Below, piece after piece: positions 422 through 42,358 of a stretch of 64,000 nt of DNA (position 1 is its first letter; every line of letters starts with the position of its first letter). Origin of the DNA: Candidatus Zhuqueibacterota bacterium (lineage in GTDB: Bacteria; Zhuqueibacterota; QNDG01; JABMRT01); contig JABMRT010000118.1 in NCBI GenBank assembly GCA_013202295.1, positions 16,109 through 80,108 of the forward strand, read 5' to 3'. The notes under the pieces are model-generated. The model saw nothing but the letters and a program-made list of their open reading frames with translations. It did no database searches and had not been told where the DNA came from. A program made the translations under genes and the position numbers.

Positions 422-470
422 TTGCAATCCGGATCAGACAAACAGTTTGACCGCGATAGGAGGAAAAGAA

Positions 471-2498
471 ATGGCAGATAAGCCACAAGGAAATATTCTT
501 TTTGAAATCATAATTGCAGTGCTGGCAATTATTTTGATTTTCACGATTTTATATCCTCAAAAAGTCTGGAACAAAGAAGATGTCCAGGAATCAATGTGTC
601 GTGCCAGAATGGACGCGATACTCAATCTTGAGCTCCAATACAATAATCAGGTCTGGACTTATTCGGATAGTCTCGAAAAAGTCAAAGATGCAGTGTTTGC
701 CGATCCCAGAGCGGTATCATGGCTTGACAGTCTTGTGATCTGGGACGACCTGGTTACTCGGGATGAATTGAAAACACTTGTGGATGCGAAAACATTCCCA
801 CAGGATCTCCGCACATTGATCCGTGAGAAGCTGTTGAAGGGAGAACCAATACGCAATCTGGGGCAATACGATTCGCTCCAATACAGACTCATCAATACAC
901 TGAAGGCACAGCTCGAAGATACAAGCGGAGCACAAAATGCTCTGCTCGATACCAACATTCAGTGGACAGTGCTTTTTGGCGAACGAAACGTTGAGAACAT
1001 GGTGGATGCCGCTGATCTGTCCAAACCTATCATCCGCCGTGCAATATCAGCTATTCAGAGTGATACACCGGTAGAGGAGACACGTGCATGGAAAACACTT
1101 TACCCTGCGTTTTATAAAAAGCTTGAAGAGATTATTCAAACTGCCGAAACATCGGACATCTGGGAGAAAAAGGATCTGGATGAGTGGAAAGAGATAAAAC
1201 GCGTTGAATGGGAAGCGGATCTGGACACACTCTCTATTGAAGAGCAGGATTCACTATGGGCCCAGAATCAGCGTGAACTGTGGGACAAGGCGAAAGATAT
1301 TGTCTGGAAAAGGGACAGTAATATACTTTGGAAAGCCGAGAAAGAAATCTGGCCGGAAGAAAATGAATCCATGTGGACACGTATTGTTTCCCAGAAATGG
1401 GAATCCGATCGTAAAAAAGAGTGGATTACATCCACAACAGATGATCAGGAGAAACTCCTTTCTTTCTGGCTTTCTGTACAACTAGCAGATACGACTGAAA
1501 TGGATGAAGAGATTGTGGATAGCACGCTCACAACCATTGCTGTGGATACAGCGTTTGAAGCGAAGGCTTTTTTCACCGAAAAACGCGATTCGCTCTGGCG
1601 GGTCGATTTACGTACAATTCGTACTCTGGAATATGAACCATGGCTGAAGAAGAATAATAAATTTGTCACGGAAGTCATTGAAAATATATGGCAAAACGAT
1701 CGCCGGATTACCTGGGAGACAGACGCATATGAAAGATGGCTCGCAGAGAAGAATGAAGACAAATCTGCTCGCTGGGTTGAGCTGAAAGAGGCACTCTGGA
1801 TCACTTCATGGAGTGAGTTGTGGAAGGATGAGGAAATTAAATTGGAGAGAAAGAATTCCGCATTAAGAAAATTGGATCTTTCCGTCAGTTGGGCCGGGCT
1901 TCTTCCCGCTGATCAGATCGAATCGCTTGTCGCCGGACTTGAGCTGCCAAACACGGCTATGATTTGGAAAAAATTAACTGCTAAGACGGATGAAAAGGGA
2001 TCCAAGCTCTATAAGTCGGGTATGGTCGCACTCTTCAGAGACGCTCTCATCGAATTTGTCAATGCATGTCCGGTTGCCAAGGTGCCTTATTTAATTCAAG
2101 TACAGGATACTACGGTTATTAAAAGAGTGAGTATTAAGTGTCCAATCAGTACAACCCACGATCTATCTGTTGGTGAATATAAATACGCCGTAATCGAAGA
2201 CACTGTCGATGTTGAAGAGGATGTGCTCATTGCTGAAACAATGATCCTGGAAGAATCGGATACAACGGCTGTGTTGGTTGAAGAGGAGATAGAAGAACCG
2301 GTCCAGGAGGAAGTGGCTCCTAAAAAATCATCCAAATCCTATGTTGTTTCATTGCGTGTGGACCCAATAACCAGAGATACAACGAAAACCCGGCTCTCTT
2401 TGCCAGCCAACGTGAAACTGTTTGGCGGTGGCACCCTTCGCAATCATGGCAATATTGATGAAGATGGCAAGAAAAGCTGGCAGAAAAAGGGACGCTAA
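471..2498 (+). CDS. Large (~675 aa) protein with type IV pilin-like N-terminus (class III signal peptide) and Trp-rich periodic repeat region
   Basis: ATG at 471 is preceded by AGGAGG (459-464). The N-terminus 'MADKPQG|NILFEIIIAVLAIILIFTILYP' has a short basic leader ending in Gly, Glu at +5 after the Gly, and a ~20-aa hydrophobic helix ending in Pro, as in type IVa pilins and pseudopilins. The central segment has W every 7-11 residues (WEKKDLDEWKEIKRVEWEADLD...LWAQNQRELWDKAKDIVWKRDSNILWKAEKEIWPEENESMWTRIVSQKWESDRKKEW). PilM-like and PilN-like genes lie directly downstream. Confidence 0.5.
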   Translation: MADKPQGNILFEIIIAVLAIILIFTILYPQKVWNKEDVQESMCRARMDAILNLELQYNNQVWTYSDSLEKVKDAVFADPRAVSWLDSLVIWDDLVTRDELKTLVDAKTFPQDLRTLIREKLLKGEPIRNLGQYDSLQYRLINTLKAQLEDTSGAQNALLDTNIQWTVLFGERNVENMVDAADLSKPIIRRAISAIQSDTPVEETRAWKTLYPAFYKKLEEIIQTAETSDIWEKKDLDEWKEIKRVEWEADLDTLSIEEQDSLWAQNQRELWDKAKDIVWKRDSNILWKAEKEIWPEENESMWTRIVSQKWESDRKKEWITSTTDDQEKLLSFWLSVQLADTTEMDEEIVDSTLTTIAVDTAFEAKAFFTEKRDSLWRVDLRTIRTLEYEPWLKKNNKFVTEVIENIWQNDRRITWETDAYERWLAEKNEDKSARWVELKEALWITSWSELWKDEEIKLERKNSALRKLDLSVSWAGLLPADQIESLVAGLELPNTAMIWKKLTAKTDEKGSKLYKSGMVALFRDALIEFVNACPVAKVPYLIQVQDTTVIKRVSIKCPISTTHDLSVGEYKYAVIEDTVDVEEDVLIAETMILEESDTTAVLVEEEIEEPVQEEVAPKKSSKSYVVSLRVDPITRDTTKTRLSLPANVKLFGGGTLRNHGNIDEDGKKSWQKKGR

Positions 2499-2522
2499 TT
2501 CTTTTAAGGCACGGATGAAATT

Positions 2523-3509
2523 TTGAAAAAAGGAAACGATAAAATCTTTCTGTCTTTTTCGATAGAACGAGATGCGATTCATCTTGTGGCTTCGAGCTCC
2601 AAACAGATTATTGGTTTGGATTCAAAAGAATTGGTTCAGCAATTTGATCATAACGGGATTCGCTCTGAAGAGATCTTGTATGAAAATTCGATAGATATTT
2701 TAAAGAAAATGCGTGAACCCTATGGTGACCGCGCCCAAAAGGCGGGGATTGTCATTGGCCAGGAGTTGGTGCTGGTTAAACGCGTGCCCGTGGCTTTGGG
2801 ATTGGATGACGAGCAGGTAAAGGACCAGCTTGATTGGGAAGCCAAGCAACTTTGCATCTCTTCGCCTGAAGAATTCAACATTGTCTCCAAGAGGATGACA
2901 CAAAGAGAGACAGGCGGCAATCAAGTATATTTAATCATACTGGTCCGAAAAAAAATCATTCAATTAATACACCGGCTTATCAAAAAGGCGGATCTAAAGC
3001 TGGTCGATGTTGAGATTGACTTGTTTGCGAATTTCCGCCTCTTTCAGGCGAACGAGAATCCCAAAGAAGGAGAAACATCTGTACTCATTCATTTACAAGA
3101 GGATACTCTCACTTTCACAGTGATCCGCGATAATGAGTATTGTCTATCTCAACGACTGGCTGTCAAGTCTGCAGGAGAGACTGAGGAAGAATTAAGCGAA
3201 AAGGTTGTTCCCTTGATTTTAAAAGAACTGAAACGCCTTGTTTTTGCACATCGTTTTGGAAATGATATTCAAGATCTCAACGGCGTTTATCTTTTATCAG
3301 AAACACCGCTTCATCTGTTTAAACAAGGGCTTGCTTCCAAGCTGCCTATTCCTGTTACACAGATTAATCCTTTTATGCAATTTGCTATCTCGGATAAATT
3401 AATTCATACAAGTAATTTTTCCGAATCACCTGGTAAGTTTGCTTCAGCTCTTGGGCAGACATATAAACATTATCCAGCATTGGTAAAAAAAGCCGCTGCT
3501 GGCAGATGA
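2523..3509 (+). CDS. PilM-like (actin-like ATPase fold) pilus assembly protein, putative; start codon uncertain (TTG at 2523 or GTG near 2587)
   Basis: The ~330 aa size fits PilM. 'SKQIIGLDSKELVQQ' resembles the PilM N-terminal 'vGiDiGsssiKvv.l' strand. The gene sits immediately upstream of an ORF whose N-terminus carries the PilN 'INL' motif. The assignment rests on context and weak motifs only. Confidence 0.4.
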   Translation: MKKGNDKIFLSFSIERDAIHLVASSSKQIIGLDSKELVQQFDHNGIRSEEILYENSIDILKKMREPYGDRAQKAGIVIGQELVLVKRVPVALGLDDEQVKDQLDWEAKQLCISSPEEFNIVSKRMTQRETGGNQVYLIILVRKKIIQLIHRLIKKADLKLVDVEIDLFANFRLFQANENPKEGETSVLIHLQEDTLTFTVIRDNEYCLSQRLAVKSAGETEEELSEKVVPLILKELKRLVFAHRFGNDIQDLNGVYLLSETPLHLFKQGLASKLPIPVTQINPFMQFAISDKLIHTSNFSESPGKFASALGQTYKHYPALVKKAAAGR

Positions 3510-3530
3510 CACACAGGGAGGATATAACCC

Positions 3531-4622
3531 ATGGTGGACATTAATCTGTTTGATGACGACGAATCCGAAGAAAAAGATGCTTTTGATGACGGTTTTGGCG
3601 CCGAATCGCTGGATAATCATGATGACCTGAACGCGGATAATTTAGGTGGCGACTTGAGTCTGGATGATGATTTATCAAGTGATGATGCCGGTTTTGGCGA
3701 GGATTCACTCCTTGACGGCGATGACACGATTCCAGAGTTTGAAGAATCGATTGAAAGCGATGAAATGGATGATTATGCCTTCGAAGACACGGGCAAGAAA
3801 AAATCCATTCCGTGGATCTGGATCATCCTTGGCGTGGTTGTAATCGCTGTGGTTGTCTATCTCTATGTCATTGTTCCCAGTCAGGGCCCAAAACCTGTGA
3901 AAGTGCAGAAATCAAAAAGGCCGGTGTCAGCACAGACTGCTTCAGGAACCAAAATCCAAGCAGATCAAGGCGCACAAAATAAAACCGAACAACCGGGATC
4001 TACTTCAGCAATACCTGTTACATCTGTTGCTGGAAAGACTGGCAATCCAGTGATTGCCGCCCGTGCGGTGTTTGAAGACTTGAGCAAAAAAGGTTCACTG
4101 GGAGTTGTAATCCTGAGCGGAAACCAGTATCTTGTGCAGTATGTTTCCAAAACACCGGGTCAAGGTGATGTCATCGGAAAAAATATTCAGGCCTTGATTG
4201 GTGCATCTTCATATGAGGTATCACCTGAAGATGTACAGGGTTCCGGCGGGCAGGCACAGTATTCCGGTGTCATTTCATGCGTGATGCCAGCGCCGGTTAA
4301 ACAACAGTTGGCTCCGGATCAAAATCCCTATCAGACCATTGATCAATTCAATCAACGGGTCTCTGAGCTGGTTAAACAAAGCGGGCTGGAACTGAAAAGT
4401 ACAGAAAAAATATCCGGCTCAAGAGGCAGTGACGGCAAACAGCCATCCGGTCATATGATTGTTGAGGGAGGGAAAGTTCAGGCGTTGAATTTCCTGAATG
4501 CATTGAATGCTTTGCAGGGAAACTGGAGCCTTTCGAGGCTTCAGTTGAATCCTTTAAATAATATGGATTATTCTGCAGAGAAAGTACGGATTGGGATCTC
4601 CTTTATTGTCCAGATCGGATAA
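3531..4622 (+). CDS. PilN-like bitopic membrane protein with an acidic disordered cytoplasmic N-terminal region (possible PilN/PilO-like fusion)
   Basis: GGAGG RBS upstream. The N-terminus 'MVDINLFDDDE' matches the conserved PilN N-terminal 'M..INLLP' motif that binds PilM. Residues 10-85 are ~40% D/E. A single TM helix (WIWIILGVVVIAVVVYLYVIV) is followed by a ~240-aa periplasmic domain. Confidence 0.4.
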   Translation: MVDINLFDDDESEEKDAFDDGFGAESLDNHDDLNADNLGGDLSLDDDLSSDDAGFGEDSLLDGDDTIPEFEESIESDEMDDYAFEDTGKKKSIPWIWIILGVVVIAVVVYLYVIVPSQGPKPVKVQKSKRPVSAQTASGTKIQADQGAQNKTEQPGSTSAIPVTSVAGKTGNPVIAARAVFEDLSKKGSLGVVILSGNQYLVQYVSKTPGQGDVIGKNIQALIGASSYEVSPEDVQGSGGQAQYSGVISCVMPAPVKQQLAPDQNPYQTIDQFNQRVSELVKQSGLELKSTEKISGSRGSDGKQPSGHMIVEGGKVQALNFLNALNALQGNWSLSRLQLNPLNNMDYSAEKVRIGISFIVQIG

Positions 4623-6861: not shown

Positions 6862-7986
6862 ATGGCAAGAATTAATTTCAGCGATAATGTTGAGGCCAGA
6901 GGGCGAAATTTGCACCTACAGACCAACACGCTGGATGAAAATAATCATATGGTTTCCACTCTTTTCGATGGCGGTCGAGTTTTGGCCAAAGAAGATAAAG
7001 TGTATCAAGAAGATCTTGCAGATGACGCACTTCAGAACGAAGTGATGATTTTTCATGCTGATCGGAAGGAATCCATTGAAAGACTGTATCTGATCTCAGC
7101 CAGAGTGAAAACCATGCGGCATGCACAGAGCATGCATATGCTCGGATGTCTTTTCCTGAAATGGCATCTGATTGATGAGGCGATTAGTGAATTTGAATAT
7201 GCCCTGAATCAGGATGATCAATATGGCGATGCCTATCTAAATCTGGGGCGTGCATATATTCTGAGAGGCGGCTTTCAAGAGGCCATTGAAATCCTTCAAA
7301 AGGGAAGAAATATCGCAACCAATTATCCAGATATACAAGCGGAATTGGGATATGCATATTTATTAAACCATCAGCATAAAGAAGCGATTGATATGCTCGA
7401 AGCTGCTCTTAAGATTAATGCCTCTTATGCGGATGTACACTATCTACTCGCACTTGTTTTCTTTTATCGGTTTTTACATGAAGAATCCGGCCAAGACGAT
7501 AATATTGAGCATTTTAAAGACAGAACAATCGAACATTTAAATCGGGCCGTATCACTTTCCAAACGATACAGAATTAAAGCGGTTGGCGAGGGCGTCTTAT
7601 TTATTAAAAGGGGAGAATTTGAGGCGGGCTATCGGAAGCTGCTTGACACCCAAGAGAAGATAGGGCCAGAATTGGATAAGACGTTTCACTATGAATTTTA
7701 TTTAAACTTTCTCTATGGTCAGGATGGGCGGAACCACAAATATCTGGATCAGTACCGCGCAACATTGGAGCAGCTTCTCAGGGAACATCCTGATTATCCG
7801 GATTTGCATAATTATCTGGGCGTGACGTCACTCATTCAGAGCAGGGAACACATCAATCGTGCGATTCATGAGTTCAGAACCGCCAATCAGCTGAATCCGG
7901 AGTATCAGGAAGCTGCGCGGAATCTGAAATTAACGGAAAATGACGGCAAGGGATTTCTCCTGCTACTCAGGGCAGTGCTACGATAA
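6862..7986 (+). CDS. TPR repeat-containing protein
   Basis: Several 34-aa TPR-like units (e.g. 'AISEFEYALNQDDQYGDAYLNLGRAYILRGGFQEAIEILQKG', 'AIHEFRTANQLNPEYQEAARNL'). Confidence 0.6.
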   Translation: MARINFSDNVEARGRNLHLQTNTLDENNHMVSTLFDGGRVLAKEDKVYQEDLADDALQNEVMIFHADRKESIERLYLISARVKTMRHAQSMHMLGCLFLKWHLIDEAISEFEYALNQDDQYGDAYLNLGRAYILRGGFQEAIEILQKGRNIATNYPDIQAELGYAYLLNHQHKEAIDMLEAALKINASYADVHYLLALVFFYRFLHEESGQDDNIEHFKDRTIEHLNRAVSLSKRYRIKAVGEGVLFIKRGEFEAGYRKLLDTQEKIGPELDKTFHYEFYLNFLYGQDGRNHKYLDQYRATLEQLLREHPDYPDLHNYLGVTSLIQSREHINRAIHEFRTANQLNPEYQEAARNLKLTENDGKGFLLLLRAVLR

Positions 7987-8159: not shown

Positions 8160-11100
8160 ATGAGACGGGTCCATAAAAAGAAGAATCAGATGATGCAGAA
8201 TAAAACAAATTTCAGTTTATTGATATTACTCGCGATCGCAAGTCTGCTCCCAAGCACCTCTATTGCGCAGCTCACAGGTGTATCAGTGACCATGGGTGAT
8301 TCGACAGTCAATGCGAGCAGCTGGCATAAGATTGAATTTACGCATACGGACTCTATTCCCAAAGATGGTAAAATTTTAATTGTTTACCCTACAGGTTTTG
8401 ATTTAACTGAAATCTATACTGTCCAATCTGATATGATGGATGGTGCCTGGACAACAATAGTGATCGGCGACACAGTTTTTATCAATCGTAATGGCAATGG
8501 ATCCCAAGAACTACCCGGACGACCTGAAAGATTATATTTGTTAAATGTGGGTAATCACACACAATCCGGCACCAGCTTCACAGTCGATGTGGAAACAAGG
8601 TTTTATAATGACGCAGTAATTGATCAAGGAACCTCAAACGGATTCAGCCTTAATCCCGGGGAAATGGATCGGTTTGCTTTTTCAGGCATTCCGGCCAACG
8701 TTGAAGCGGGAGATCAATTTCCAATAACGATCACTGCACAAGATGAGTATGGGAATGATGCTACAGGTTTTACCTCCGATGCAACTCTTTCAGATAAAAC
8801 AGGTACGTTAAGTATTTCTGGAGGTGGCACTACTACAAGCTATTTCACCGCAGGCGTTTGGAGTGGAAACATTCAAATACTTCAAACAAATCTAAGCAAT
8901 TCAATTACAGCTACCTCGGGGAGCAAGACCAGCACATCCGGCTCTTTCGTGGTCGATCCAACAACCTTGGATTACTTCACATTCGGTGCAATCTCAAGCC
9001 CACAAACTGCGGATACACCGTTTGGTGTTAGCATTACGGCCTATGACAACCTTGGCAATATCAAGACGGATTACACAGGTAATACTGATTTGACCGACCA
9101 AACAGGAAACTTATCAATCACGCTCAACGAATTTGACAACAATACGACCGCTGCATTTTCAGGCGGCATCTGGAGCGGCAATGTTCAAGTGACTCAGACG
9201 TCAACTGATAATTTTATTACGGCTTCCGGTCCTGCGAGTGGCAATTCCGGGCAGTTCAATATCAATCCTGCGTCAGCAAGCACATTTACTTTTTCCAATA
9301 TCGTTGATCAGGAGGTCGGTGAGCCTTTCCTGATTACAATCACAGCACGCGATCTTTATAATAATGTAGCAACCAGTTTTGGATTAACCGCTACATTATC
9401 CGATGTGACCGGCACACTTCAGATCAGGGCCAATGGCAGTGGAACCACAACAAATAGTTTCTCATCCGGTGTGTGGACCGGGAACGTTGATGTCAATCTG
9501 ATTCATACTGCCGATCAGATTTCTGCGGTCAGTGGTGCTGTGACTGGCAGCTCAACTCAATTTCGAGTGGATCCAACCAGTTCAGTGGATCACTTTGATG
9601 TCACAATTGCCTCCATAGGCACTCCGAAAACCGCAGGCGTTCCGTTTTCCGTAACCATAGAAGCAATTGATGAATTTGGGAATACCGCCGATTATTCCGG
9701 CAATGTCACACTCTTTGACGAAACAGGGACCAATTCACCACAACAGGTTGCAATCAGCAATGGAACTTGGACGGGGAATGTTACGATAGAGCAAGTGCGA
9801 TCTAACAACTCTTTGACGGTTGCTGGTGCGGGTGAGGGTGGGGTGTCCGGCAACTTTGATGTTGTGGCGAACACAGTAGCCTCCTTCGGAATTAATCCGA
9901 TCACCAGCCCCCAACGGGCCGGAAGTTTTTCCATAAACATGACTGCGTATGACGTGTATGATAACATTGCCACAAGCTTCAATCAAACGGTGACACTGGA
10001 AGTTCTCGCATCCGCGACTATTGCCATTACGCCAACGACAAGCGGCGCGTTCAGCAATGGTCAGAGAACCCAGACGGTGCAGATTACCCAGGCCGCGCAG
10101 GATCTTCAAATCCGTATTGTGGATGCAGGGAGCCATGAGGGCACTTCCAACCTGTTCAATGTGATTCATCATGCCACACTCGATGAGTTCGTGATTGGTC
10201 CCATCGCGACCCAGGCAGCAGGGCTTCCTTTTACCCTCTCTTTAACTGCGGTAGATCAATACGGAAACACTTATACCAGTTTTGACGGCACAGACAATTG
10301 GGTATATATCAGCCATTCCGGTTCTGGCAGTATCGTTCCGGTCCAAAGTCAAACTTTTGATCAAGGCAAGTGGGTCGGGAATATTACGATCGATGAGGTT
10401 CAGACGGGCGATGTAATTACTGTCACACGCTATAGCGGCTTAGAAAACGGGCAATCTAACGCATTTAACGTGACGCCAGGCGTGGTAAGTTATTTTGAAT
10501 TTGATCCAATACCCGATCCCATTGTAGCGGGCGATACTTTCCAGATCTGGGTGCGCGCCTATGATGCACAGGGCAATCTCGTTACCGGAGCGGAAGGATC
10601 CTTCGTGATCAATCTGATTGACGAAACCGGATCGATTCTTGACGATACGGGCACAATCAACATAAGCCAGGTTTCACTGATTGGTGGAGTGGGTACTGAA
10701 ACAATTCAGATCCGGGAAAGCATTTACAATAACACACTCACTGCATCCGGGCAAGGTAAAAGCGGTATATCCAATGAATTCGATGTGAATCCCGCCGCGG
10801 TGAATCATTTCAATATTGGTGTGATTGGCAGCCCGCAATTCTCTACTCAAAGTTTTGCGATGACCATCACAGCCAAGGATCAGTTTGAGAACACGGTCGA
10901 TTATTATACAGAGTCTGTGTACCTGTCCGATTCAACCGGAACAATCCAGCCCACACAAAGCGGTACTTTTATTAATGGTGTGCGTACTGTTTCCGTTCAG
11001 ATCACAGAAGCGAGAAACGATGTCCGCATTTGGGCGTATCTTGGATCCGGGGAAAAGGGCGAATCCAATCTGTTTAATGTGTTCCCCGGTCCATTGGATC

Positions 11101-14100
11101 ATTTCACATTTAATGAAATTCCGGATCAGATTATCCGACATCCATTCTCTATTACAATTACTGCTTTTGACGTGAATAATAATATCAAGACAAATTTCAA
11201 TGAATCCGTCACTCTTTCAGATGAAACCGGGACGATTACACCTACAGTGAGTCCCAATTTTGTGAATGGTGTGATGACAGGCGGTGTCACACTATATACC
11301 GATACGACGGATAATCGAATCACAGCCACCTATAATAGTGTGTCTAATTCTTCCGAGCTCTTTGACGTGGTGCTCGATCCGGGTATTCAGGTGCTTAATT
11401 TTAAAGCGCTTTGGAAAGACACAACCACACAGATCAGTTCCATAACAACGAATCAAGACAGCCTCTGGTATTTAACCTGCCATGTGCGAAACATGAGTGG
11501 ATCCAACACCCGAATGGATAGTCTGCAATTGTCCGTTACAGTAAACAATCAACAGCGGAATGACTTCACTTATACTCTTCCCACGCAGTTCTGGGGGAAC
11601 GGTACAGAGAACCTGGGCGGCGGCGCATTGGATTCTCTGCTCATTCCGATCACGCATACGGGCAGCAGATCCGGCCCGGCGATTTTTCAGGTGACCGCCT
11701 TTTTGAAAAAACTTGATACGGGCGCTACTTTGTCCAATGATGCAGTTACCAATTTGTTGGTGCAAACCGACGGAGTTCTCTACGTCAATGAGATGCGAAT
11801 GAAGAATCCGGTTGTATCGAAAGCTGAAGTCACAAGGGGGCAAGATCAAGATTGGTCCATCTCCGTAGTGGTCAAAAATCAGGGACAAAGCCACATTCTG
11901 GTGGATTCCTCTACCAATGCCACATTTCTTAATTTCAGTATCGGGACGCCTGCCACCTGGATCATAGCAAGACCGCCCTTATGGAGCGGTGGCGACTGGA
12001 TTCTTGAAGGCGGAGAGACAGATACACTTAAATACATCATTGATGAAACGACGGATTTGAACTCCGGCTCCTGTTCTGTAGATGCTTATATTGAAGGCAC
12101 GGAAATCAATACTGGCAGGACACTGACAGAAAACACACTTGACGGGGGATCGGGTACCGTGCTCATTGAACAACCGGCCGCGCTGAGAATTCAATCCGTA
12201 ACGAACCTTGCACCCAATGCACCCTATGTGAACCGGAGTCAAGCTTTTACAATTCGAGTACAAGTTACTAATCCGGGCGGGGACGCGTCGCTCTCTTCCT
12301 CTTTAGCGATAAATCAACTCCATTCCTCTTTCCCTGCAACGAGTAATGTGGGATTACTTTCAGGAAGCCAATCCCAAACTGTTGATATTGCCGGCACAGC
12401 TGCTGCAGTAGAGGGTCTGGATGACACCTTTACAATTCGAGCCAATGGCACAGCAGAAAATACAAACGCGTCCATTAGCGATCAAAATCCAGTGGATGAT
12501 ACAGCGCAGGCGATTACTCAGATTCCAGCAACACTCGAAATTATTTCCGTGATTCCTTCCACGACCCAATTGCTGGGAGGACAAACAGATCCATGGAAAT
12601 TGAGGGTTGTTTTACGAAACTCCGGTCAGGCTATCATTGATCTGGATCCGCCCAAGGCAGACAGTTTGAGTTTCTGGGTGGAAGGACTCAGACAGGAAGA
12701 TTATAATGTCATTGCTCCAACCGGATTGTCGAAAAGCGGCAATCTTTCATTGTCAGGCGGAATTACTGATACGCTGACTTTTACAGTAAACACAACAGGC
12801 ACCTATGGCGGCACAGTAGGCATTCTTGCTTCAATTAGCGGTAAAGACAGAAATGATTTAAACATTGTCCGGGATACTGATAACACAAGCGTAACCGTGG
12901 AAACAGAAGAAGCTTTCCGCATCATCCAGACACAGATTGATGCGATTAATACGACAGATGCGAAGAATGGATATGTGAATACCGGCCAGGATTTCAATGT
13001 GCTGGTCATTGTAGAAAATGCCTTGGGCAATACAATTCGAAACATCGATATCCGACTAAACTCGGACGGCGATTCACAGATCGATGATACTACTGCTTTT
13101 ATCAGCTCATTGCCTCCGTCTAAGCGGGATTCGGTCTGGTTTGATGTTCAAGCATCCGGCATTGAGAATCTCAACGGTGAACTGTTTACATCATCTATTG
13201 CTTCCGCAAAGCGCGACAATCAAGTCGATGATGCTCCAATCGGAGCCGCACATGATTCCACAGCAACGATGATTATCCAAACCCGTGCCGAGTTGTCTCT
13301 TGAGCTTTCTTTGGATCCGGCTTCGGGTGTTGTGTCCGTCAACCAACCCTTCACAGTGCAGGCTCGATTGATAAAAACCGGGTCGAGCCAATTGAAAAAT
13401 GATGGCCGCGTGAAGGTTGTACCTCCTAGCGGGTATTTGCTCTTCTCGGATTCCGATACCGCATCTATTACACCGGCACAGCCCGTATCGTGGATCATTG
13501 AAGCACCCAGTGACACCTCGACCGATGATGAAATTCGTGTCAAACTGGAAAGCTATCCCGATGATAAGAATACAGATAACAATGCCTATGTGTCCAATAA
13601 TTCAACTTATATATCCATTTCTACAATACGAAGCCGGATGGATGCTGCGGTCACAATTTCGGATCCAGCCGGAGCAGCGGATGGCACGATTTCAAGCGGG
13701 CAGAATTTTACAGTAAAGGTAGCAGCCGGATTGTCTAATGTGACCGGGGCAAGGGCCAAGATCGATTTGCCCAGTGGCTATACCACACGAAACAATGTCA
13801 CACAAGTTCTCAGTCCGGATTCGGCCACATGGCTGGTGACAGCGCCAGCACTATCTCAATCTGAAAATGAGATTGAGGTAATCACATGGGGATATGATGA
13901 TCTCCAGCCCAATATAGAAATAGGAAGAGATACAACGCGACTTCCAATTCAAACTGTATTACGCGCCGATCTATCTCTTTCATTAGAAATCACCAGTCCT
14001 CCGGAAGCGGCCCAATATGGCACCGTCTCTCTGGGCCAGGAATTTACAGTACAATCACGCGTTGTAAATAACGGTGTGGCAACGACAGAAGGTGACATGC

Positions 14101-15146
14101 AAGTCACTCTACTCTCCTTACCGGATGGTTTTACAACCCATGACCCTCTAACTCAAACTTTGATATCCGGCGATGCGGACTGGACCATAAAAGCACCGAA
14201 CCAGATCAATCAGGCCATCGCAAGCATCGAGGCCCGAATTACTCAAATCCCGCAGGATGAAAACACGAATCAACAAGCTCATATTTCAAAAGATTACCAA
14301 TCTGTTTCACTGACTTTAGAAGGGGCTACTCTGGCAGTATCGGCACTGCCTCTACCCGAAGGAGCAAAGCAGGAATTGGTGCCGGGTCAGGAGGATGTGG
14401 TCTTCATGCGACTCCAGCTAAAGAATGACGGGCAGGAGGGATCATACGATATACAGGTTGAGCGTATTCATTTCTATTTAGAAGACAGAAACGGGAATCC
14501 GGTTTCTCCCGCATCTGCACTTTCACGGCTTGAAGTGGTTGATGATCAAAACGCGACCACATATGGCGGAATCACACAGATCCCATCCGCCAATCCCCTA
14601 ACCATTGAACTCAATGGATTGATTGTGACTGTCGAGCAGAAAGCTCAGGATGAAAATCCGACAATACTTATTCGGGGAAATATCTCCGGCTCAGAAACGA
14701 TTCCCTACTTTCTATTAAATCTACCTGGAACTGATGCCATTGAAGCGATTGAGTCCAACACCGGACGAATTGTTTCGGTGACCGATCCTACTGGTGAAGA
14801 CTGGGAGGACATGCGGTCCATGCCGATGAAGATTTTTGATCTGGTTCGCGAGCATCAACTTTGGAACAGCCCCAATCCGTTTGGAGAGTCAGGCCGGGAG
14901 ATCACATCAATCTATTTTTATATGCCAGAACAACAATCGGTTGAGTTCCGCATCTTCACATTGATGGGGAAGTTGGTAAAAACAATTCAAATCGATGAGG
15001 TGGATGTTATTGCAAACCAGATTAATCTCTGGACATGGGATGGTACCAATGACAAAGGCATTAGGGTTCTGAATGGTGTATACCATTTATTTATGCAAAT
15101 GAGTGACGGACAGATTTTAAAACATAAAATCGCTTATGTGAAATGA
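8160..15146 (+). CDS. Giant (2328 aa) cell-surface repeat adhesin with T9SS C-terminal sorting domain; ~95-aa Ig-like tandem repeats N-terminally and CARDB/DUF11-like repeats C-terminally
   Basis: Signal peptide (LLILLAIASLLPSTSIAQ). About 10 repeats of the pattern 'F.F..I.SPQ.AG.PF..TITA.D.YGN....F.....L.D.TGT......F..G.W.GNV.I........ITA.....G.S..F.V.P'. Later repeats look like 'A.LRIQSV.NL......V...Q.FTIRV.V.N.G'. The C-terminal ~90 aa 'NPFGE...ITSIYFYMPEQQSVEFRIFTLMGKLVKTIQID...GVYHLFMQ..DGQILKHKIAYVK' matches the T9SS CTD. Confidence 0.8.
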   Translation: MRRVHKKKNQMMQNKTNFSLLILLAIASLLPSTSIAQLTGVSVTMGDSTVNASSWHKIEFTHTDSIPKDGKILIVYPTGFDLTEIYTVQSDMMDGAWTTIVIGDTVFINRNGNGSQELPGRPERLYLLNVGNHTQSGTSFTVDVETRFYNDAVIDQGTSNGFSLNPGEMDRFAFSGIPANVEAGDQFPITITAQDEYGNDATGFTSDATLSDKTGTLSISGGGTTTSYFTAGVWSGNIQILQTNLSNSITATSGSKTSTSGSFVVDPTTLDYFTFGAISSPQTADTPFGVSITAYDNLGNIKTDYTGNTDLTDQTGNLSITLNEFDNNTTAAFSGGIWSGNVQVTQTSTDNFITASGPASGNSGQFNINPASASTFTFSNIVDQEVGEPFLITITARDLYNNVATSFGLTATLSDVTGTLQIRANGSGTTTNSFSSGVWTGNVDVNLIHTADQISAVSGAVTGSSTQFRVDPTSSVDHFDVTIASIGTPKTAGVPFSVTIEAIDEFGNTADYSGNVTLFDETGTNSPQQVAISNGTWTGNVTIEQVRSNNSLTVAGAGEGGVSGNFDVVANTVASFGINPITSPQRAGSFSINMTAYDVYDNIATSFNQTVTLEVLASATIAITPTTSGAFSNGQRTQTVQITQAAQDLQIRIVDAGSHEGTSNLFNVIHHATLDEFVIGPIATQAAGLPFTLSLTAVDQYGNTYTSFDGTDNWVYISHSGSGSIVPVQSQTFDQGKWVGNITIDEVQTGDVITVTRYSGLENGQSNAFNVTPGVVSYFEFDPIPDPIVAGDTFQIWVRAYDAQGNLVTGAEGSFVINLIDETGSILDDTGTINISQVSLIGGVGTETIQIRESIYNNTLTASGQGKSGISNEFDVNPAAVNHFNIGVIGSPQFSTQSFAMTITAKDQFENTVDYYTESVYLSDSTGTIQPTQSGTFINGVRTVSVQITEARNDVRIWAYLGSGEKGESNLFNVFPGPLDHFTFNEIPDQIIRHPFSITITAFDVNNNIKTNFNESVTLSDETGTITPTVSPNFVNGVMTGGVTLYTDTTDNRITATYNSVSNSSELFDVVLDPGIQVLNFKALWKDTTTQISSITTNQDSLWYLTCHVRNMSGSNTRMDSLQLSVTVNNQQRNDFTYTLPTQFWGNGTENLGGGALDSLLIPITHTGSRSGPAIFQVTAFLKKLDTGATLSNDAVTNLLVQTDGVLYVNEMRMKNPVVSKAEVTRGQDQDWSISVVVKNQGQSHILVDSSTNATFLNFSIGTPATWIIARPPLWSGGDWILEGGETDTLKYIIDETTDLNSGSCSVDAYIEGTEINTGRTLTENTLDGGSGTVLIEQPAALRIQSVTNLAPNAPYVNRSQAFTIRVQVTNPGGDASLSSSLAINQLHSSFPATSNVGLLSGSQSQTVDIAGTAAAVEGLDDTFTIRANGTAENTNASISDQNPVDDTAQAITQIPATLEIISVIPSTTQLLGGQTDPWKLRVVLRNSGQAIIDLDPPKADSLSFWVEGLRQEDYNVIAPTGLSKSGNLSLSGGITDTLTFTVNTTGTYGGTVGILASISGKDRNDLNIVRDTDNTSVTVETEEAFRIIQTQIDAINTTDAKNGYVNTGQDFNVLVIVENALGNTIRNIDIRLNSDGDSQIDDTTAFISSLPPSKRDSVWFDVQASGIENLNGELFTSSIASAKRDNQVDDAPIGAAHDSTATMIIQTRAELSLELSLDPASGVVSVNQPFTVQARLIKTGSSQLKNDGRVKVVPPSGYLLFSDSDTASITPAQPVSWIIEAPSDTSTDDEIRVKLESYPDDKNTDNNAYVSNNSTYISISTIRSRMDAAVTISDPAGAADGTISSGQNFTVKVAAGLSNVTGARAKIDLPSGYTTRNNVTQVLSPDSATWLVTAPALSQSENEIEVITWGYDDLQPNIEIGRDTTRLPIQTVLRADLSLSLEITSPPEAAQYGTVSLGQEFTVQSRVVNNGVATTEGDMQVTLLSLPDGFTTHDPLTQTLISGDADWTIKAPNQINQAIASIEARITQIPQDENTNQQAHISKDYQSVSLTLEGATLAVSALPLPEGAKQELVPGQEDVVFMRLQLKNDGQEGSYDIQVERIHFYLEDRNGNPVSPASALSRLEVVDDQNATTYGGITQIPSANPLTIELNGLIVTVEQKAQDENPTILIRGNISGSETIPYFLLNLPGTDAIEAIESNTGRIVSVTDPTGEDWEDMRSMPMKIFDLVREHQLWNSPNPFGESGREITSIYFYMPEQQSVEFRIFTLMGKLVKTIQIDEVDVIANQINLWTWDGTNDKGIRVLNGVYHLFMQMSDGQILKHKIAYVK
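8655..11355 (+). repeat. In-frame tandem coding repeats (~285 bp / ~95 aa, ~10 copies, diverged) within the giant adhesin gene
   Basis: The motifs 'SPQ.AG.PF..TI.A.D', 'L.D.TGT', 'G.W.GNV.I' and 'F.V.P' recur with ~95-aa periodicity. Confidence 0.6.
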
Positions 15147-15223
15147 CAGAAATGGAAATGAGATATAATTCCCCGAAGAGAATTCTGGATGGGTATCCAG
15201 CGTTTGATTCGGGAATCATTTAA

Positions 15224-17161
15224 ATGGATTTGATTCAGGTTATGCCAATGAAAAAGATTACAATGGTTCTATTCGCAGGGATAGTCCTCACCTCGTTTAT
15301 CTCGCTGCAGGCACAGGATGGTGAAGCCGGTATAGAGAGCCTCTTTTCGATCGGTTTTGGAGCCAGAGGCATGGCTCTTGGAAATGCTTCTGTGGCTTTC
15401 CCCGAAGACCCCACGGCGTTCGCGTGGAATCCTGCGGGTATGGTCAAGGTTGAGCGCAAAGAATTCCTTTTCAGCCATACCACACTCTTTGAGGATGTTC
15501 AATATAATTTTATCGGATATGTACATCCTACCTTAAATGCCGGTACATTCGGATTCGGCATTTCACGGGCGGGTACCGGAGGAATCCGGGAATTTGATAA
15601 TATAAATGGAGTTTCCATCGAAGGCGATGAATTCGGATACTGGTGGGGCAAACTTTCCATTGCTTACGCAGTCCATCTATTTAGCGGGATCTCTTTCGGC
15701 GCGAACTTTGAGGCGAACCGGCAAGTGCTTTTGGATTATTCGACCAATGGGTTTGGACTCGATGCCGGATTACATTATGCGCCCTCAAACACCAGCATGC
15801 TTCACGGCTTTAATTTCGGGTATGTTGCGGTAAATGCGTACAGTCCCAGATTAAAGTTAGGGACCGAATCAGAAGCCATCCCTCCTATACAGAAACTGGG
15901 TATTGCGCGTACGATCAATTTGCGTGACGGACTGGACCGATGGCTCTTTCTCTTTGATTATGAATGGGCGCAAAATAAAAAATCAAAATATCATTTTGGT
16001 ACCGAGTACAGCCTTGATCGAAGTGTTTTCTTTCGAACGGGTTTTGATAATGGTGAGATCACATTTGGAGGCGGGCTTCGCATACACATGTTCCAGTTAG
16101 ATTACGCGAATAGCCGTATTGGAGATGCCGAATATTTTCCTCGAAGTCATCGCTTTTCTCTCATTTTTCATATTGGTCAGACTTTGGCTGAAAAGCTTGA
16201 AGCCATTCAAGATCAACGAGAGCAGGAGATTCGTGACCGGTTTCAGGAAAGGCTCAGCGAAGAACGCAAAGTGCGTATTGAAGAAAGCCTAAAAACGGGA
16301 CAGGAATACTTTGATAAAGGAGATTACTTTAACGCACGACTCGAATTTAGCAGGGTTTTGCGTGAAGATAGAAATAATGTGGCTGCCAAACGCAGGCTCG
16401 ACATGACGACCGAGAAGGAACAGGAATTCCAGAAACAGCGTGAGGATTCTTTGTTGAGTGCGGCCAGAGAACGCGACCAGCAGCAGCGTGATCTCGATTT
16501 CGTGAATCAGCGCTTCCAGGATGGAAATGAGGCCATGCAGCGGGGCGAGTTTCAGGCTGCAATCAAAAAATGGGAAGAAGCACTTGAAGTAGATCCAGAT
16601 CATCCCACCATCCGTTCGTACATTAGCCAAGCCCGTAATCAATTGGAAAGTGAAATCAATCGTGCGATTGCGAGTTCGCGCGCATACATGCGTCAAGAGA
16701 ATTTGACTGAAGCGAGACGCCTTCTTGAGCGTGCTAAAACACAGGCTGAGGGCAATCCGGAGCTGACTCGAAAGGTTACCGGCGAAATGAGGAATTTTGA
16801 TCGCATGGTTGACTTCATCTCGAATTATCAGGCGGGATTTAAACGATATAACGAGGGTCAATTTGCTGAGGCCGTTCCCTATTTTGAGAAAGCACTTGAA
16901 ACTCAGCCGGAAAACGAGCGGGTGCGCCAGCTTTATCAAAACGCACGGGCACGATCCAATACAGAAGAAAGCAATCAGCCTCCAGAAGTCAAGAGGGATG
17001 TTAGCGATAAGATTAAAGAAGGGATCGGCTTTTATAGAGATGGCCGATATGAAGAAGCATTGAGAGTTTGGGAGGAGGCGCTGGAACTGGATCCACATAA
17101 CGTTAGACTGTTGGAAGCTATCGACGGCGCCAGAGAAAAACTTGAAACGTTTCAACAATAA
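15224..17161 (+). CDS. Outer-membrane beta-barrel (FadL/PorV/PorP-SprF-like N-terminal motif) fused to a C-terminal coiled-coil/TPR domain; candidate T9SS-associated partner of the upstream adhesin
   Basis: Signal peptide, then 'GFGARGMALGNASVAFPEDPTAFAWNPAGM' (the AR.GM.G...A..PD......NPA pattern of PorV/FadL-type barrels). Alternating amphipathic strands run to ~aa 300, ending in 'FSLIFHIGQ'. The C-terminal ~340 aa are helical with TPR-like units ('WEEALEVDPDHPTIRSYISQAR', 'FEKALETQPENERVRQLYQNAR', 'WEEALELDPHNVRLLEAIDGAR'). Its position immediately downstream of a T9SS cargo gene mirrors sprB-sprF-type pairs. Confidence 0.5.
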   Translation: MDLIQVMPMKKITMVLFAGIVLTSFISLQAQDGEAGIESLFSIGFGARGMALGNASVAFPEDPTAFAWNPAGMVKVERKEFLFSHTTLFEDVQYNFIGYVHPTLNAGTFGFGISRAGTGGIREFDNINGVSIEGDEFGYWWGKLSIAYAVHLFSGISFGANFEANRQVLLDYSTNGFGLDAGLHYAPSNTSMLHGFNFGYVAVNAYSPRLKLGTESEAIPPIQKLGIARTINLRDGLDRWLFLFDYEWAQNKKSKYHFGTEYSLDRSVFFRTGFDNGEITFGGGLRIHMFQLDYANSRIGDAEYFPRSHRFSLIFHIGQTLAEKLEAIQDQREQEIRDRFQERLSEERKVRIEESLKTGQEYFDKGDYFNARLEFSRVLREDRNNVAAKRRLDMTTEKEQEFQKQREDSLLSAARERDQQQRDLDFVNQRFQDGNEAMQRGEFQAAIKKWEEALEVDPDHPTIRSYISQARNQLESEINRAIASSRAYMRQENLTEARRLLERAKTQAEGNPELTRKVTGEMRNFDRMVDFISNYQAGFKRYNEGQFAEAVPYFEKALETQPENERVRQLYQNARARSNTEESNQPPEVKRDVSDKIKEGIGFYRDGRYEEALRVWEEALELDPHNVRLLEAIDGAREKLETFQQ

Positions 17162-23457: not shown

Positions 23458-25755
<2,298 letters not shown>

Positions 25756-25961: not shown

Positions 25962-26609
25962 TTGTCCGGGACGTCAAATAGAAAAAGGCAGAATCACTCT
26001 GTCTTTTCTTTTTTGAATGCAAAACGGAAACGATTTTTCTGTTCTGGCGTTTTAAAAGGACATATAAAGGAGCGATCGAAGATTTTCAGGAATATCGGGG
26101 TAATACTTCATATCCTCTTCCTGTTGGGAATTCTTTCAGGGTGGATCTCTCTGGGGTGCCTCAATCCCTTTGCACCCAAGCTAACCGATCAGCTTGAAGT
26201 GGGAGATTTGGTTGTAACACAGCAAAAAACACCTTTGGAGGTATTGCAAAATTTCAAGATTTCGTATATGTTCCAGGATTCTCTTTTATATAGCAATACA
26301 ATAGATACTTCTTTCATCTTTGTTTATCGAGAGGGCACAACCAGCGAATGGGTTTCATGGGGCAGAGAAGAGGATCTTGTGACGACGGGTCGGATGTTCA
26401 GACATTTTAACGTAATTGATCTGGTTTGGAATGAGACCATAGATGAAACCCTCGAAGAAAGTGTGAGTGAAATAAGCAGAGGATTTAATCTAACTTTAAC
26501 CGGTGAACAGTCTGGTTATACGATTTCCGGCCGCGCGGATTTTACATTTCGAAAAGGCAATGATGAAAAATGGAGAATTTCACGATGGAAGGACTGGTCA
26601 GATATTTAA
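25962..26609 (+). CDS. Hypothetical protein (possible lipoprotein; true start probably internal/alternative)
   Basis: Hydrophobic segment 'VILHILFLLGILSGWISLGC' (signal/lipobox-like) followed by a soluble ~150-aa domain. No recognisable family. Confidence 0.35.
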   Translation: MSGTSNRKRQNHSVFSFLNAKRKRFFCSGVLKGHIKERSKIFRNIGVILHILFLLGILSGWISLGCLNPFAPKLTDQLEVGDLVVTQQKTPLEVLQNFKISYMFQDSLLYSNTIDTSFIFVYREGTTSEWVSWGREEDLVTTGRMFRHFNVIDLVWNETIDETLEESVSEISRGFNLTLTGEQSGYTISGRADFTFRKGNDEKWRISRWKDWSDI

Positions 26610-26683
26610 TTTCAAAGGGATTGGATGAATCTTTTTTGTCTAATCAATATAGAACTGTCTTAGCAGAACATAGAGGGTGGATC

Positions 26684-29600
26684 ATGTTATCCAGTAGAAT
26701 TAAACAAGCAAAAGGTTTTCTCGCGTTCCTGATCGGGATGATGTTTATCCTTTTTATCAATCAGGTGGCATACACTCAGGGATTCGGGAAGAACAAGGTT
26801 CAGTATCGAACCTTTGACTGGAAATTTATCCAGTCTGATCATTTCGATGTGTACTATTATGACGATGCCAAAGAGGTTGCAATTTTCACAGCAGATGTGG
26901 CTGAATCAAGCTACGTGGCCTTGAAGAAAGATTTCAAATACAAGGTGACAAATCGTATCCCCATACTCATCTATAATGGGCACAATGAGTTTCAACAGAC
27001 CAATGTCACGCTTTCTGATTTAAGTGAATCAGTCGGTGGATTCACAGAAGTCTTTAAAGATCGTGTCGTTATTCCGTTTCAAGGCAGTTACAAAGAGTAT
27101 CGTCATGTGCTGCACCATGAACTCACACACGCAGTGATGTTTCAAATGTTTTATGGCGGCGGTATGGGAGCCACCATTACAGGGATGGCTCGGTTTCAAG
27201 TTCCTTTGTGGCTGGCCGAAGGACTTGCGGAATATGAGAGTCTGGGTTGGGATACTGACAGCGATATGTACATGCGGGATGCGGCAATCAATGGCTATGT
27301 GCCCCCTATAGAGTATATGTATGGATTTATGGTATACAAAGGCGGCCAATCTGTTCTCAATTATATTGCGGACAAGTATGGCGAACAGAAAATTAGCGAG
27401 ATACTCGGTAAAGTCCGGCTTAGCCGGAATGTAAATCAGGGAATCAAACAATCCATCGGGATCGATTTGGAAGAACTTTCTGAACGATGGCATAAACATT
27501 TACGAAAAACCTATTGGCCTGATGTAGAAAACAGACATGAGCCGGAAGATTTAGCCAAACGACTCACTGATCATGAGAAAAACGAACATTTTCTGAATGG
27601 TTCACCCTCAGTTTCTCCCAAGGGCGATCGCATTGCTTATTTATCCGATCGCTCCAATTATACGGATATTTATTTAATGAGCACGGTGGATGGGCGGAAT
27701 CTGGGACGACTTGTGAAAGGGCAGCGTTCCAATCTCTTTGAAGAAATGCATTGGCTCAGGCCCGGCATGAGTTGGTCGCCGGACGGCAAGCAACTTGTTT
27801 TTGCAGCCAAAGCTTCGAATAAAGATGCCCTCTTTTTTCTTGATGTCGATGACCGAAGCATTATTTCCTCTCACAAATTCGACCTGGATGGTGTTTATTC
27901 TCCGTCCTGGTCTCCGGACGGGAATACAATCGCGTTTATGGGTCTCAAAGGCTCGCAATCCGACATCTATTTATTTCACATCGAATCGGAGGAATTAGAA
28001 AAACTCACGGATGATATTTTCAGCGATTTGGATCCGAACTGGTCTCCGGACGGATCGCAGATTGTTTTTATCTCTGACCGGCAGAATTTTTTCAGTGCGC
28101 CACCGGCCGGTTTTAAAATGTATGAACACAGTTTTGAACAAGTGGATTTATATAACATCCATGTAGATACAAGAGAAATTTCACGTTTGACGGATACAGA
28201 TGCCGAGGAGAAGAGTCCCGTATTTTCACCTGACGGCAGACAAATTTCCTATATCTCTGATGAAAGCGGGATTAGTAATATTTATATCCTCAGCCTTGGT
28301 GAAAATTCAAGCAGACCTGTAACCAATTTGCTTACGGGTGTGTCTCAACTCTCCTGGTCAAGAGATGGATCTAGATTGGTCTTTTCTTCATTTTCTACCG
28401 GTGGATATGATCTGTATCTGATCAACAATCCGATTGAAAAAACCGATATCGAGCAAATTGAACTCACACAAACTGCTTATATGGCTCGAAAAACATCTGA
28501 ACCCGATCAATCTAAAAGCCGAATAAAACCGGCTGAACAAGATGATTCTGGCAACAATTACAGCAATTTTGTTTTTGACAGCAAGTTCAAACGGGGTGAG
28601 ATGGATGCAACAGAGGCTGCTTCTCAAACCAAAGAGGATACAACCGAATATAAGACTGCGGCCGGAGAGTACATCACAAAAAACTACAGGCTTCGGTTCA
28701 CCCCGGATGTGGTTACTGGTAGTGCCGGGTACAGTCAATTCTGGGGATTGCAGGGCACATCAATGTTTGTGCTCTCTGATATTTTAGGCAACCATCAGTT
28801 CAGTTTGTATACAGATCTTTTTTACAACATCAAAAACTCCAATTTCCAGCTTGGATATTATTATCTGCCTAAAAAGACAGATTTCGGTGTTTCTCTTTTC
28901 CACTACTCCTATTTGTTCTACACCTATTTTTCGGATGGGCAATCACTCTATTATGGATACCTGAGGAATCGGAATTATGGCTTAAGTCTCTATTTTTCTC
29001 GCCCATTCAACCGATATCGCCGAATCGATTTCTCCGTTGTTGGGCTTGCTATTGACGCCGATCTTGTGGCGCTTAATCCCTATTATTACTATTATGGTGG
29101 TGATTACGAGCACGACATGGGCAATCTTTACAAACGAAGAACAATGATTTTTAATCTTGGGCACACTATGGATACAGTGCTCTGGGGGTATACCAGCCCC
29201 AAAAACGGAGGTCGTTCAAATCTGTCTGTTAATTACAGTCCGAATATTTTCGGATCGAATGGCATTTCTTTTTACGGTGCACAGGGAGACTGGCGAAAAT
29301 ATTTCAGGATAGGACGTGACTATTCATTGGGTGTTCGACTGGCCAGTGGATTTTCAAACGGAAGGAATCCACAATATTTTCTTCTTGGCGGTATGTCTAA
29401 CTGGGTCAATTATAAATATAAAGACACATCGAATGATCTGTATCTGAATGGTAAAATTTTCTTCTCGTCATTTGAGGGGCCGTTGCGCGGAACACCTTTT
29501 TATGAAATGATCGGAACCCGATTCGCTTTAATGAATCTTGAATTACGTTTTCCACTGATAAAATATCTCATATTAGGAGGGCCGCTTCGCATTGGATTTC

Positions 29601-42343: not shown

Positions 42344-42358
42344 AAGGAGGATTAAATC

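Follow-up and report, generated by a model that had tools for sequence, protein, structure and literature searches.

A giant secreted protein, a PorV/PorQ-family barrel with a TPR arm and partner-switching genes form a conserved module in KSB1, Calditrichia and other bacteria

Why does the gene of a PorV-like outer-membrane barrel with a long helical arm lie directly behind the gene of a giant secreted protein? The question is raised by a 64,000-nucleotide stretch of a Candidatus Zhuqueibacterota genome (contig JABMRT010000118.1), the whole of which is called the window. An earlier note on this DNA had pointed out a 2328-aa protein with type IX secretion system (T9SS) features, followed by a protein that joins a β-barrel to a region of tetratricopeptide repeats (TPR). 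Both open reading frames are present as described there and lie on the plus strand. Comparison with related loci shows a conserved module, probably co-translated, that consists of the barrel with its arm, a giant with a special C-terminal domain (CTD), and a partner-switching set. The module is read here as a cognate pair of a giant and a PorV-like anchor, whose periplasmic TPR arm would be linked to partner-switching signalling. A probability of roughly 0.45, slightly short of even odds, is assigned to this reading.

The neighbourhood of the barrel gene was compared across 21 distinct loci, uniformly re-scored by phmmer and ranging from 38 to 71% in GC content. A scan of a genome collection with a narrow alignment gave 12 loci; metagenome contigs supply the evidence for a broad taxonomic spread, and the named groups are Calditrichaceae/Calditrichia and KSB1. 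In 19 of the 20 assessable loci, the gene directly 5′ of the barrel gene encodes a giant with the same CTD subfamily. L006 is the exception without a giant, and L009, which lacks upstream sequence, was not assessable. The KSB1-type loci are syntenic over the whole region, from rsmD-coaD-pta to acn-icd, and this subset alone would be uninformative. However, the giant–barrel core also occurs where the flanking genes are unrelated, namely in the Calditrichia loci L004 and L018 and in L005, L019, L020, L021, L022, and L023. The giant and barrel–TPR genes are a conserved pair, beyond general synteny.

In the window, the barrel gene follows immediately 3′ of the giant, as first described, with a gap of 77 bp for the longest reading frame or ~101 bp with the shorter start used by NCBI. 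The only candidate for a terminator between them is a weak 6-bp hairpin (15185–15200), which was not treated as such. The called genes of giant and barrel overlap by 1–32 nt in L005, L019, L020, L022, and L023, and in L020 overlaps of 4 nt continue from the giant through the phosphatase to the STAS gene. These overlaps make coupled expression of the module likely, and the giant and barrel genes are probably co-translated.

Directly 3′ of the barrel gene, 19 of the 21 loci carry genes for a HAMP-PP2C phosphatase and an RsbW-like kinase; L024 and L006 are the exceptions. A STAS gene follows wherever the contig extends far enough (in L020 it was taken from database gene calls). Kinase and phosphatase are fused in the window into one protein of 1198 residues. 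It is sequentially composed of an RsbW-like kinase (residues 12–137), a first transmembrane segment (160–178), a periplasmic loop of ~150 residues, a second transmembrane segment (328–346), a HAMP domain, a SpoIIE/PP2C domain (452–647), a helix-turn-helix (HTH; 665–705), an acidic linker, and TPRs (~1070–1190). The acidic stretch is ~280 residues long and contains 26% aspartate and glutamate. The Pfam scores are 170.3 bits for SpoIIE, 93.8 bits for HATPase_c_2, and 32.6 bits for HAMP. The STAS protein reaches 59.1 bits with TIGR00377 (cutoff 53.45) and 63.6 bits with Pfam STAS. It has a conserved serine within the motif DYISSAG and an HTH-like tail at the C terminus, and it is NCBI entry NQT25635.1, a "STAS domain-containing protein" of a candidate division KSB1 bacterium. 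Judged by domain content, the window encodes an RsbU/V/W-type partner-switching set, with a PP2C phosphatase, a HATPase_c_2 kinase, and a STAS protein with its serine.

The kinase is placed differently among the loci. It is N-terminal to the phosphatase in one protein in the window, L004, L021, and L022, C-terminal to it in L020, fused to STAS in L005, and free in L019 and L023. These differing fusions, a Rosetta-stone pattern, tie the phosphatase, kinase, and STAS protein together. L019 and L023 have an sCache domain at the position of the phosphatase loop, so that the ~150-aa loop can be read as a periplasmic sensor. In L022 (14624–21827), a ParA/BcsQ-like ATPase gene is inserted before the STAS gene, and genes for a GAF-GGDEF cyclase (SiaD-like, 142 bits) and for Wza/Wzz polysaccharide export follow. 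The gene content of this locus suggests an output in cyclic di-GMP (c-di-GMP) signalling and biofilm formation. The features of the module in the window are collected in Table 1.

Table 1. Positions of the module and its parts in the 64,000-nucleotide window.
Feature	Position	Strand	Basis
Cytoplasmic TPR protein, 374 aa, directly 5′ of the giant	6862..7986	+	TPR matches
Giant secreted surface protein, 2328 aa	8160..15146	+	Open reading frame, translation, repeat mapping
Nine tandem Ig-like repeats of the giant, ~100 aa each, aa 170–1075	8667..11384	+	Iterated hidden Markov model (HMM) on the giant itself
Divergent T9SS type-A-like CTD of the giant, aa 2236–2328	14865..15143	+	TIGR04183, FlgD_ig, hhalign
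Barrel–TPR fusion protein, 645 aa	15224..17161	+	Open reading frame
Signal peptide and PorV/PorQ-family FadL-fold outer-membrane β-barrel, aa 1–320	15224..16183	+	NF033709, AlphaFold2, Foldseek, PDB profile search
All-helical TPR arm of the barrel–TPR protein, ~325 aa, predicted periplasmic	16184..17161	+	TPR_2, DSSP on the AlphaFold2 model
Kinase–phosphatase fusion protein, 1198 aa	17185..20781	+	Pfam and NCBIfam matches, hydropathy
STAS anti-sigma-antagonist-like protein, 217 aa	20854..21507	+	TIGR00377, Pfam STAS

The barrel had been described as PorV/PorP/FadL-type, and the first and last of these names stand. The model of the PorV/PorQ family, NF033709, matches the barrel–TPR protein above its cutoff (98.8 bits versus 90), with residues 42–316 aligned to positions 8–325 of 326, and it matches all 26 of 26 diverse relatives (best E 1.3e-43). 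The PorP/SprF model TIGR03519 gave no match to the window protein at E ≤ 0.01 and weak matches to 6 of the 26 relatives (best E 7.6e-6). The equivalog models of the individual family members remain far from their cutoffs: 18.5 bits versus 250 for PorV proper (NF033710), 60.2 versus 220 for PorQ proper (NF033711), and 62.8 versus 325 for PorV2 (NF052325). By these profile scores, the protein is a PorV/PorQ-family member of a separate subfamily and not an ortholog of PorV, PorQ, or PorV2. An NCBI entry from a candidate division KSB1 bacterium is 100% identical and bears the name "PorV/PorQ family protein"; that version starts 24 nt later and has 637 residues.

The predicted structure agrees with this assignment. 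An AlphaFold2 model built from an 80-sequence alignment has a mean predicted local distance difference test (pLDDT) score of 86.2; in it, a signal helix and a short N-terminal segment precede a barrel (residues 79–317) and a helical region (residues 321–644). Block pLDDT values of the barrel are mostly above 90, and DSSP assigns 14–15 strand elements to it, a count that is approximate. The best Foldseek matches are the PorV chains 8gl6_F (E 6.6e-11, TMt 0.60) and 6h3i_F (E 4.4e-10, TMt 0.63), followed by FadL, TodX, and TbuX. PorV of 6H3I also comes out on top when a profile of the barrel is compared with PDB sequences (E 2.3e-15); the remaining matches are mostly poly-Gly linker artefacts and were disregarded. 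A single-sequence phmmer search of the barrel against PDB gave no match, and a profile was needed. The N-terminal motif, noticed at the outset as AR.GM.G, is present as GARGMALGNA...WNPAG; it is nearly invariant across the family and aligns with that of PorV itself.

The C-terminal part of the protein, previously described as coiled-coil/TPR, is indeed all-helical over residues 321–644 and has strong TPR matches, with 83.5 bits for TPR_2 and additional hits to other TPR models. DSSP delineates four long helices of 30–54 residues in the AlphaFold2 model (residues 321–364, 386–439, 461–490, and 512–543). The C terminus of FadL- and PorV-type barrels faces the periplasm, and the arm is for this reason predicted to be periplasmic. 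The fusion is widespread. A word-indexed search found ~80 clusters of full-length (~640 aa) homologues with 40–82% identity. When phmmer was run exhaustively with only the barrel as query, 6799 matches passed E ≤ 1e-3 and 1786 passed E ≤ 1e-10. Among the closest 145 representatives of 50%-identity clusters, 98 are at least 520 residues long, and 94 of these 98 possess a window-type arm. Such numbers indicate that the barrel–arm fusion is a large family and not a peculiarity of one locus. The extra TPR domain is, as the earlier note held, absent from described PorV and SprF proteins, but it is not specific to this locus.

The giant begins with a Sec signal peptide (residues 1–37 of the translation) and continues with an N-terminal domain, nine Ig-like repeats, two more β-rich repeat classes, a conserved C-terminal region of ~270 residues, and the T9SS-like CTD. 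The nine repeats have domain E-values of 1e-31 to 1e-37 with the iterated HMM. Three copies of a ~120-aa repeat (residues 1077–1199, 1208–1330, and 1457–1579) form the second class, and three copies of a ~110-aa repeat (residues 1712–1823, 1829–1933, and 1940–2053) form the third, so that the mapping yields three repeat classes instead of the two counted before. An AlphaFold2 model of the first-class unit, built from the nine copies in the giant, adopts an Ig-like β-sandwich fold (pLDDT 94.9). Its Foldseek matches include the S-layer protein SbsC, intimin D0/D1, and Ig domains of GH2 enzymes (TMq 0.6–0.7), and weak matches to Big_1/Invasin_D3 agree with the Ig-like fold. A word-indexed homology search with the C-terminal 329 residues of the giant returned a single fragment.

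The CTD contains the motifs PNPF ... WDG.N..G..V.NGVY ... KIAYVK. Its scores with single models are borderline or below cutoff. TIGR04183 gives 18.0 bits (cutoff 23) over model positions 3–68 of 72, and FlgD_ig gives 26–27.4 bits (cutoff 27). Orthologous giant tails reach 20.5, 20.6, and 23.0 bits with TIGR04183, and one of them reaches 21.3 bits with PF18962 (cutoff 27). The tail of the giant also resembles the CTD ends of PorU, PorZ, and one T9SS-dependent protease. The T9SS CTD that had been claimed for the giant nonetheless finds support in profile homology. In an hhalign comparison, a profile of five orthologous giant tails aligned with a profile of three bona fide T9SS CTDs from the same window with a probability of 98.7% and an E-value of 2.9e-16 over 87 columns.

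The same CTD subfamily ends all 19 cognate giants. With the window tail as query, phmmer recovers every one of them (E 1e-7 to 1e-38), whereas the three canonical CTDs of the window all escape it. The homology seen by hhalign and the failure of phmmer to find the canonical CTDs together indicate that the tail is homologous to T9SS CTDs and belongs to a distinct, divergent type-A-like subfamily. As to type B, CHU_C (PF13585) scores 13–19 bits on the giant tails (cutoff 27), and TIGR04131 is absent even at E ≤ 10.

These assignments bear on the possibility that the barrel–TPR protein is simply the shuttle of this lineage for all type A cargo and that its adjacency to the giant is inherited synteny. 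Such a general role would fit the match to the PorV/PorQ family model, PorV as the closest solved structure, and the synteny of KSB1-type loci from rsmD to icd. However, the PorV equivalog score is far too low, and the adjacency of giant and barrel survives unrelated flanks and very different GC contents. In addition, the CTD subfamily of the giant is unlike the canonical CTDs of the same window, and the gene overlaps indicate coupled expression. A general shuttle is considered very unlikely.

The three canonical CTDs belong to consecutive secreted proteins (52464–53858, 54469–57132, and 57918–59456): a GH18 chitinase-like protein, a β-propeller protein, and one without assignment. Each carries a TIGR04183 CTD above threshold. 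Judged from these matches, the organism clearly uses T9SS-type CTDs, which speaks indirectly for a T9SS in this organism. In L023, the gene two upstream of the giant, with a sulfatase gene between them, encodes a 1538-aa protein with Propeptide_C25, Peptidase_C25, and a FlgD_ig tail; the last 161 nt of this gene lie in the locus (1–161). The C25 peptidase may be a PorU-like sortase.

In known type IX systems, PorV holds PorU and PorQ holds PorZ. PorV and PorQ, together with the CTD-bearing PorU and PorZ, make up a cell-surface attachment complex (PMC9143113, PMC11205867). The binding partners of PorV- and PorP-like barrels are type A and type B CTD proteins, and SprF binds SprB (PMC9143113). 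By analogy with PorV/PorU, PorQ/PorZ, and SprF/SprB, the barrel is proposed to bind the CTD of the giant.

In the proposed mechanism, the giant would be exported by Sec and then pass through the outer membrane by type IX secretion, with the divergent type-A-like CTD as its signal. The dedicated PorV/PorQ-family barrel would bind this CTD and hold the giant at the cell surface or hand it over. From the C terminus of the barrel, the helical ~325-aa TPR arm would run into the periplasm and touch the sensor loop that the HAMP-PP2C phosphatase of the inner membrane exposes there. The state of the giant (present, loaded, or bound) would then act by way of the RsbW-like kinase and the phosphatase to set the phosphorylation state of the STAS protein, and the partner switch would control a cytoplasmic output. 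We infer that the arm reaches the periplasmic sensor of the phosphatase, and likewise the nature of the output.

A stronger form of the proposal describes the module as a trans-envelope signalling device made from T9SS parts. The barrel and arm would report the state of the giant (secreted, surface-bound, or under load) to the PP2C phosphatase and thereby flip the STAS/RsbW switch, which in some lineages would lead to c-di-GMP synthesis and exopolysaccharide export. This form is tentative and rather doubtful.

Several points weigh against the reading of a cognate pair linked to signalling. No core T9SS gene (SprA/Sov, PorK/L/M/N, equivalent to GldK/L/M/N, PorT, PorU, or PorV) was seen in the 64-kb window. 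The CTD of the window giant remains under the curated cutoffs of TIGR04183 and PF18962. With a predicted TM-score (pTM) of 0.56, the AlphaFold2 model is unreliable as to how arm and barrel are oriented to each other. L024 and L006 keep the barrel–TPR gene without the signalling set, and the link to the PP2C phosphatase is therefore frequent, not obligatory. Finally, the adjacent regulators could simply govern transcription of the operon.

The two exceptional loci differ in what surrounds the barrel gene. In L024 (599–17091), the giant is 3116 residues long and has the same CTD, the barrel protein encoded after it is 1361 residues long and has a much longer TPR region, and ExbB-ExbD-ExbD-TonB genes lie 3′ of the barrel gene in place of the phosphatase set. 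L006 (10001–14497) encodes a 740-aa relative of the barrel–TPR protein with 24% identity and no cognate giant, the sole such locus among the 20 assessable. The downstream gene in this locus codes for a Reg_prop-type propeller that ends in an OmpA-like peptidoglycan-binding part. This neighbour was considered as a PorE ortholog and rejected, as it has merely a generic OmpA-like C-terminal domain.

The lack of core T9SS genes in the window, the sub-threshold CTD, and the coupling of the L024 pair to an ExbB-ExbD-TonB energising set would all suit a system that does without the T9SS. The barrel with its arm would then itself export, assemble, or tether the giant, with energy or control supplied from the inner membrane, and the CTD would be a barrel-binding tag only. 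However, we know of no 14-strand FadL-type barrel that translocates folded giant proteins. The above-threshold type A CTDs of three proteins in the same window and the PorU-like C25 peptidase with a FlgD_ig tail two genes 5′ of the L023 giant also speak for a type IX route, as does the report of T9SS across the Fibrobacteres–Chlorobi–Bacteroidetes (FCB) superphylum (PMC11205867). Export independent of the T9SS is considered very unlikely.

A more serious alternative retains the cargo/anchor pair and separates it from the signalling genes. The phosphatase, kinase, and STAS protein would be co-located expression regulators that sense a periplasmic cue of their own, and the arm would be a structural, PorE-like tether to peptidoglycan-associated or T9SS ring proteins. 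The HTH-like domains of the KSB1 phosphatase and STAS protein could act directly on DNA. PorP, which pairs with the periplasmic TPR-containing protein PorE, provides a precedent for the tether (PMC9143113). The arm has a weak match to the TPR region of PorE, with 20 bits in the window protein and matches in 6 of 26 relatives. An OmpA-like peptidoglycan binder adjoins the barrel in L006, and ExbBD-TonB replaces the signalling set in L024.

However, the similarity to PorE is that of generic TPRs, 20 bits versus a cutoff of 600, and the order of the genes is unusually rigid. This rigidity, together with the 4-nt overlaps from giant to STAS in L020, is suggestive of stoichiometric co-production, and complex partners show this more typically than regulators do. 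Independent regulators next to a tethered pair are a possible explanation, though on the whole an unlikely one.

The 374-aa TPR protein encoded directly 5′ of the giant was also considered as a core part of the module. It was rejected, as it has no signal peptide or transmembrane segment and is conserved in KSB1-type loci only; it is present in L001 and L002 and absent in L005, L019, L020, and L022.

Other parts of the window are of separate interest. A 751-aa monomeric isocitrate dehydrogenase (TIGR00178) is encoded at 23500–25755, where syntenic relatives carry a ~450-aa Iso_dh-type enzyme (L001 18427–19779, L002 18237–19586); from the families involved, it looks like an in-place non-orthologous replacement. 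The GC content is 0.50–0.51 at 22–26 kb versus ~0.44–0.46 in the flanks. A 1092-aa protein (26570–29848) contains Peptidase_MA_2, PD40/Tricorn-type propellers, and an Omp85/TamL-like C terminus, a fusion that is conserved in L001 and L002, where it occupies the same position. Three genes at 39119–51114 encode a 1074-aa AsmA-like protein, a DUF1318 protein, and a protein of 2737 residues in which TolB-like propellers and many TPRs are joined by a C-terminal region weakly like Csx29/CHAT. Three co-directional genes at 447–4622 encode an unassigned 683-aa protein, a PilM-like actin-fold protein (2523–3509), and a 363-aa protein, the last of which had no match in family searches.

A full-text literature search found no paper that joins PorV-type barrels with partner switching or type IX secretion with anti-sigma factor antagonists, no description of RsbU/V/W or SiaABCD systems with an outer-membrane barrel or T9SS cargo, and no paper on T9SS in KSB1 or Calditrichaeota. 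As far as this search shows, the conserved arrangement of giant, barrel, and signalling genes has not been described before; the barrel family itself is already named at NCBI. Barrels of the PorV, PorQ, and PorP types are known as passive shuttles or anchors of T9SS cargo. If the giant and its barrel are linked to signalling as proposed, the role of such accessory barrels would extend from anchoring to signalling or energy coupling. Partner-switching systems, whose signals are mostly obscure, would gain an input from the module as well. For KSB1, Calditrichia, and further uncultured lineages of FCB type, in which cell-surface biology is essentially unexplored, the module delimits a clean gene set.

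The signalling part of the module, as read from sequence, has the same three components as RsbU/RsbV/RsbW and the SiaABCD system of Pseudomonas aeruginosa: a phosphatase of the HAMP-PP2C type, a serine kinase of the RsbW type, and a STAS protein in which the serine is conserved. The SiaA match is weak (78 bits), and a SiaD-like GGDEF cyclase and exopolysaccharide export genes follow the set in L022. Unlike in these systems, a single protein of 1198 residues combines kinase, phosphatase, HTH, and TPR in KSB1, and no gene for a sigma factor lies beside it. The likeness to FecA-FecR-FecI is conceptual only. In both cases a barrel with a periplasmic extension would pass on an event at the surface to a regulator in the inner membrane, the relay of the present module being hypothetical. 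FecA-type systems employ a 22-strand TonB-dependent barrel with an N-terminal extension and a relay through an anti-sigma factor and an extracytoplasmic function (ECF) sigma factor, whereas the module has a barrel of the 14-strand FadL/PorV type, a C-terminal TPR extension, and a PP2C partner switch.

The barrel itself is closest to PorV (LptO) and PorQ, known from Porphyromonas gingivalis and from the SprA-PorV structures of Flavobacterium johnsoniae (6H3I, 8GL6). It shares with them the family, the FadL-type fold, and the GAR...WNPAG motif. PorV and PorQ bind type A CTDs, and the giant has a type-A-like CTD. However, the barrel–TPR protein lies far under the equivalog cutoffs, possesses a C-terminal arm of ~325 residues that they lack, and is encoded beside a single giant cargo and partner-switching genes. 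PorP and PorE also combine a barrel with a periplasmic TPR protein (PMC9143113), but in the present module the TPR region is fused to the barrel and is not a separate lipoprotein.

SprB/SprF-like pairs share the logic of the arrangement, in which a huge repetitive surface protein is encoded next to, and expressed together with, its own 14-strand FadL-family barrel that binds its C-terminal region, as the barrel here would by analogy. The earlier note had drawn this comparison, and it holds for the conserved pair and for a barrel from the FadL-fold group of T9SS proteins. It does not extend to the families involved: the window barrel is of the PorV/PorQ and not the PorP/SprF family, and the CTD of the giant is type-A/FlgD_ig-like and not type B. 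By analogy, the barrel–TPR protein would work most like the SprB/SprF or PorQ/PorZ pairs, from which it differs in the type-A-like CTD of its partner, the fused arm, and the rigid link to a partner switch.

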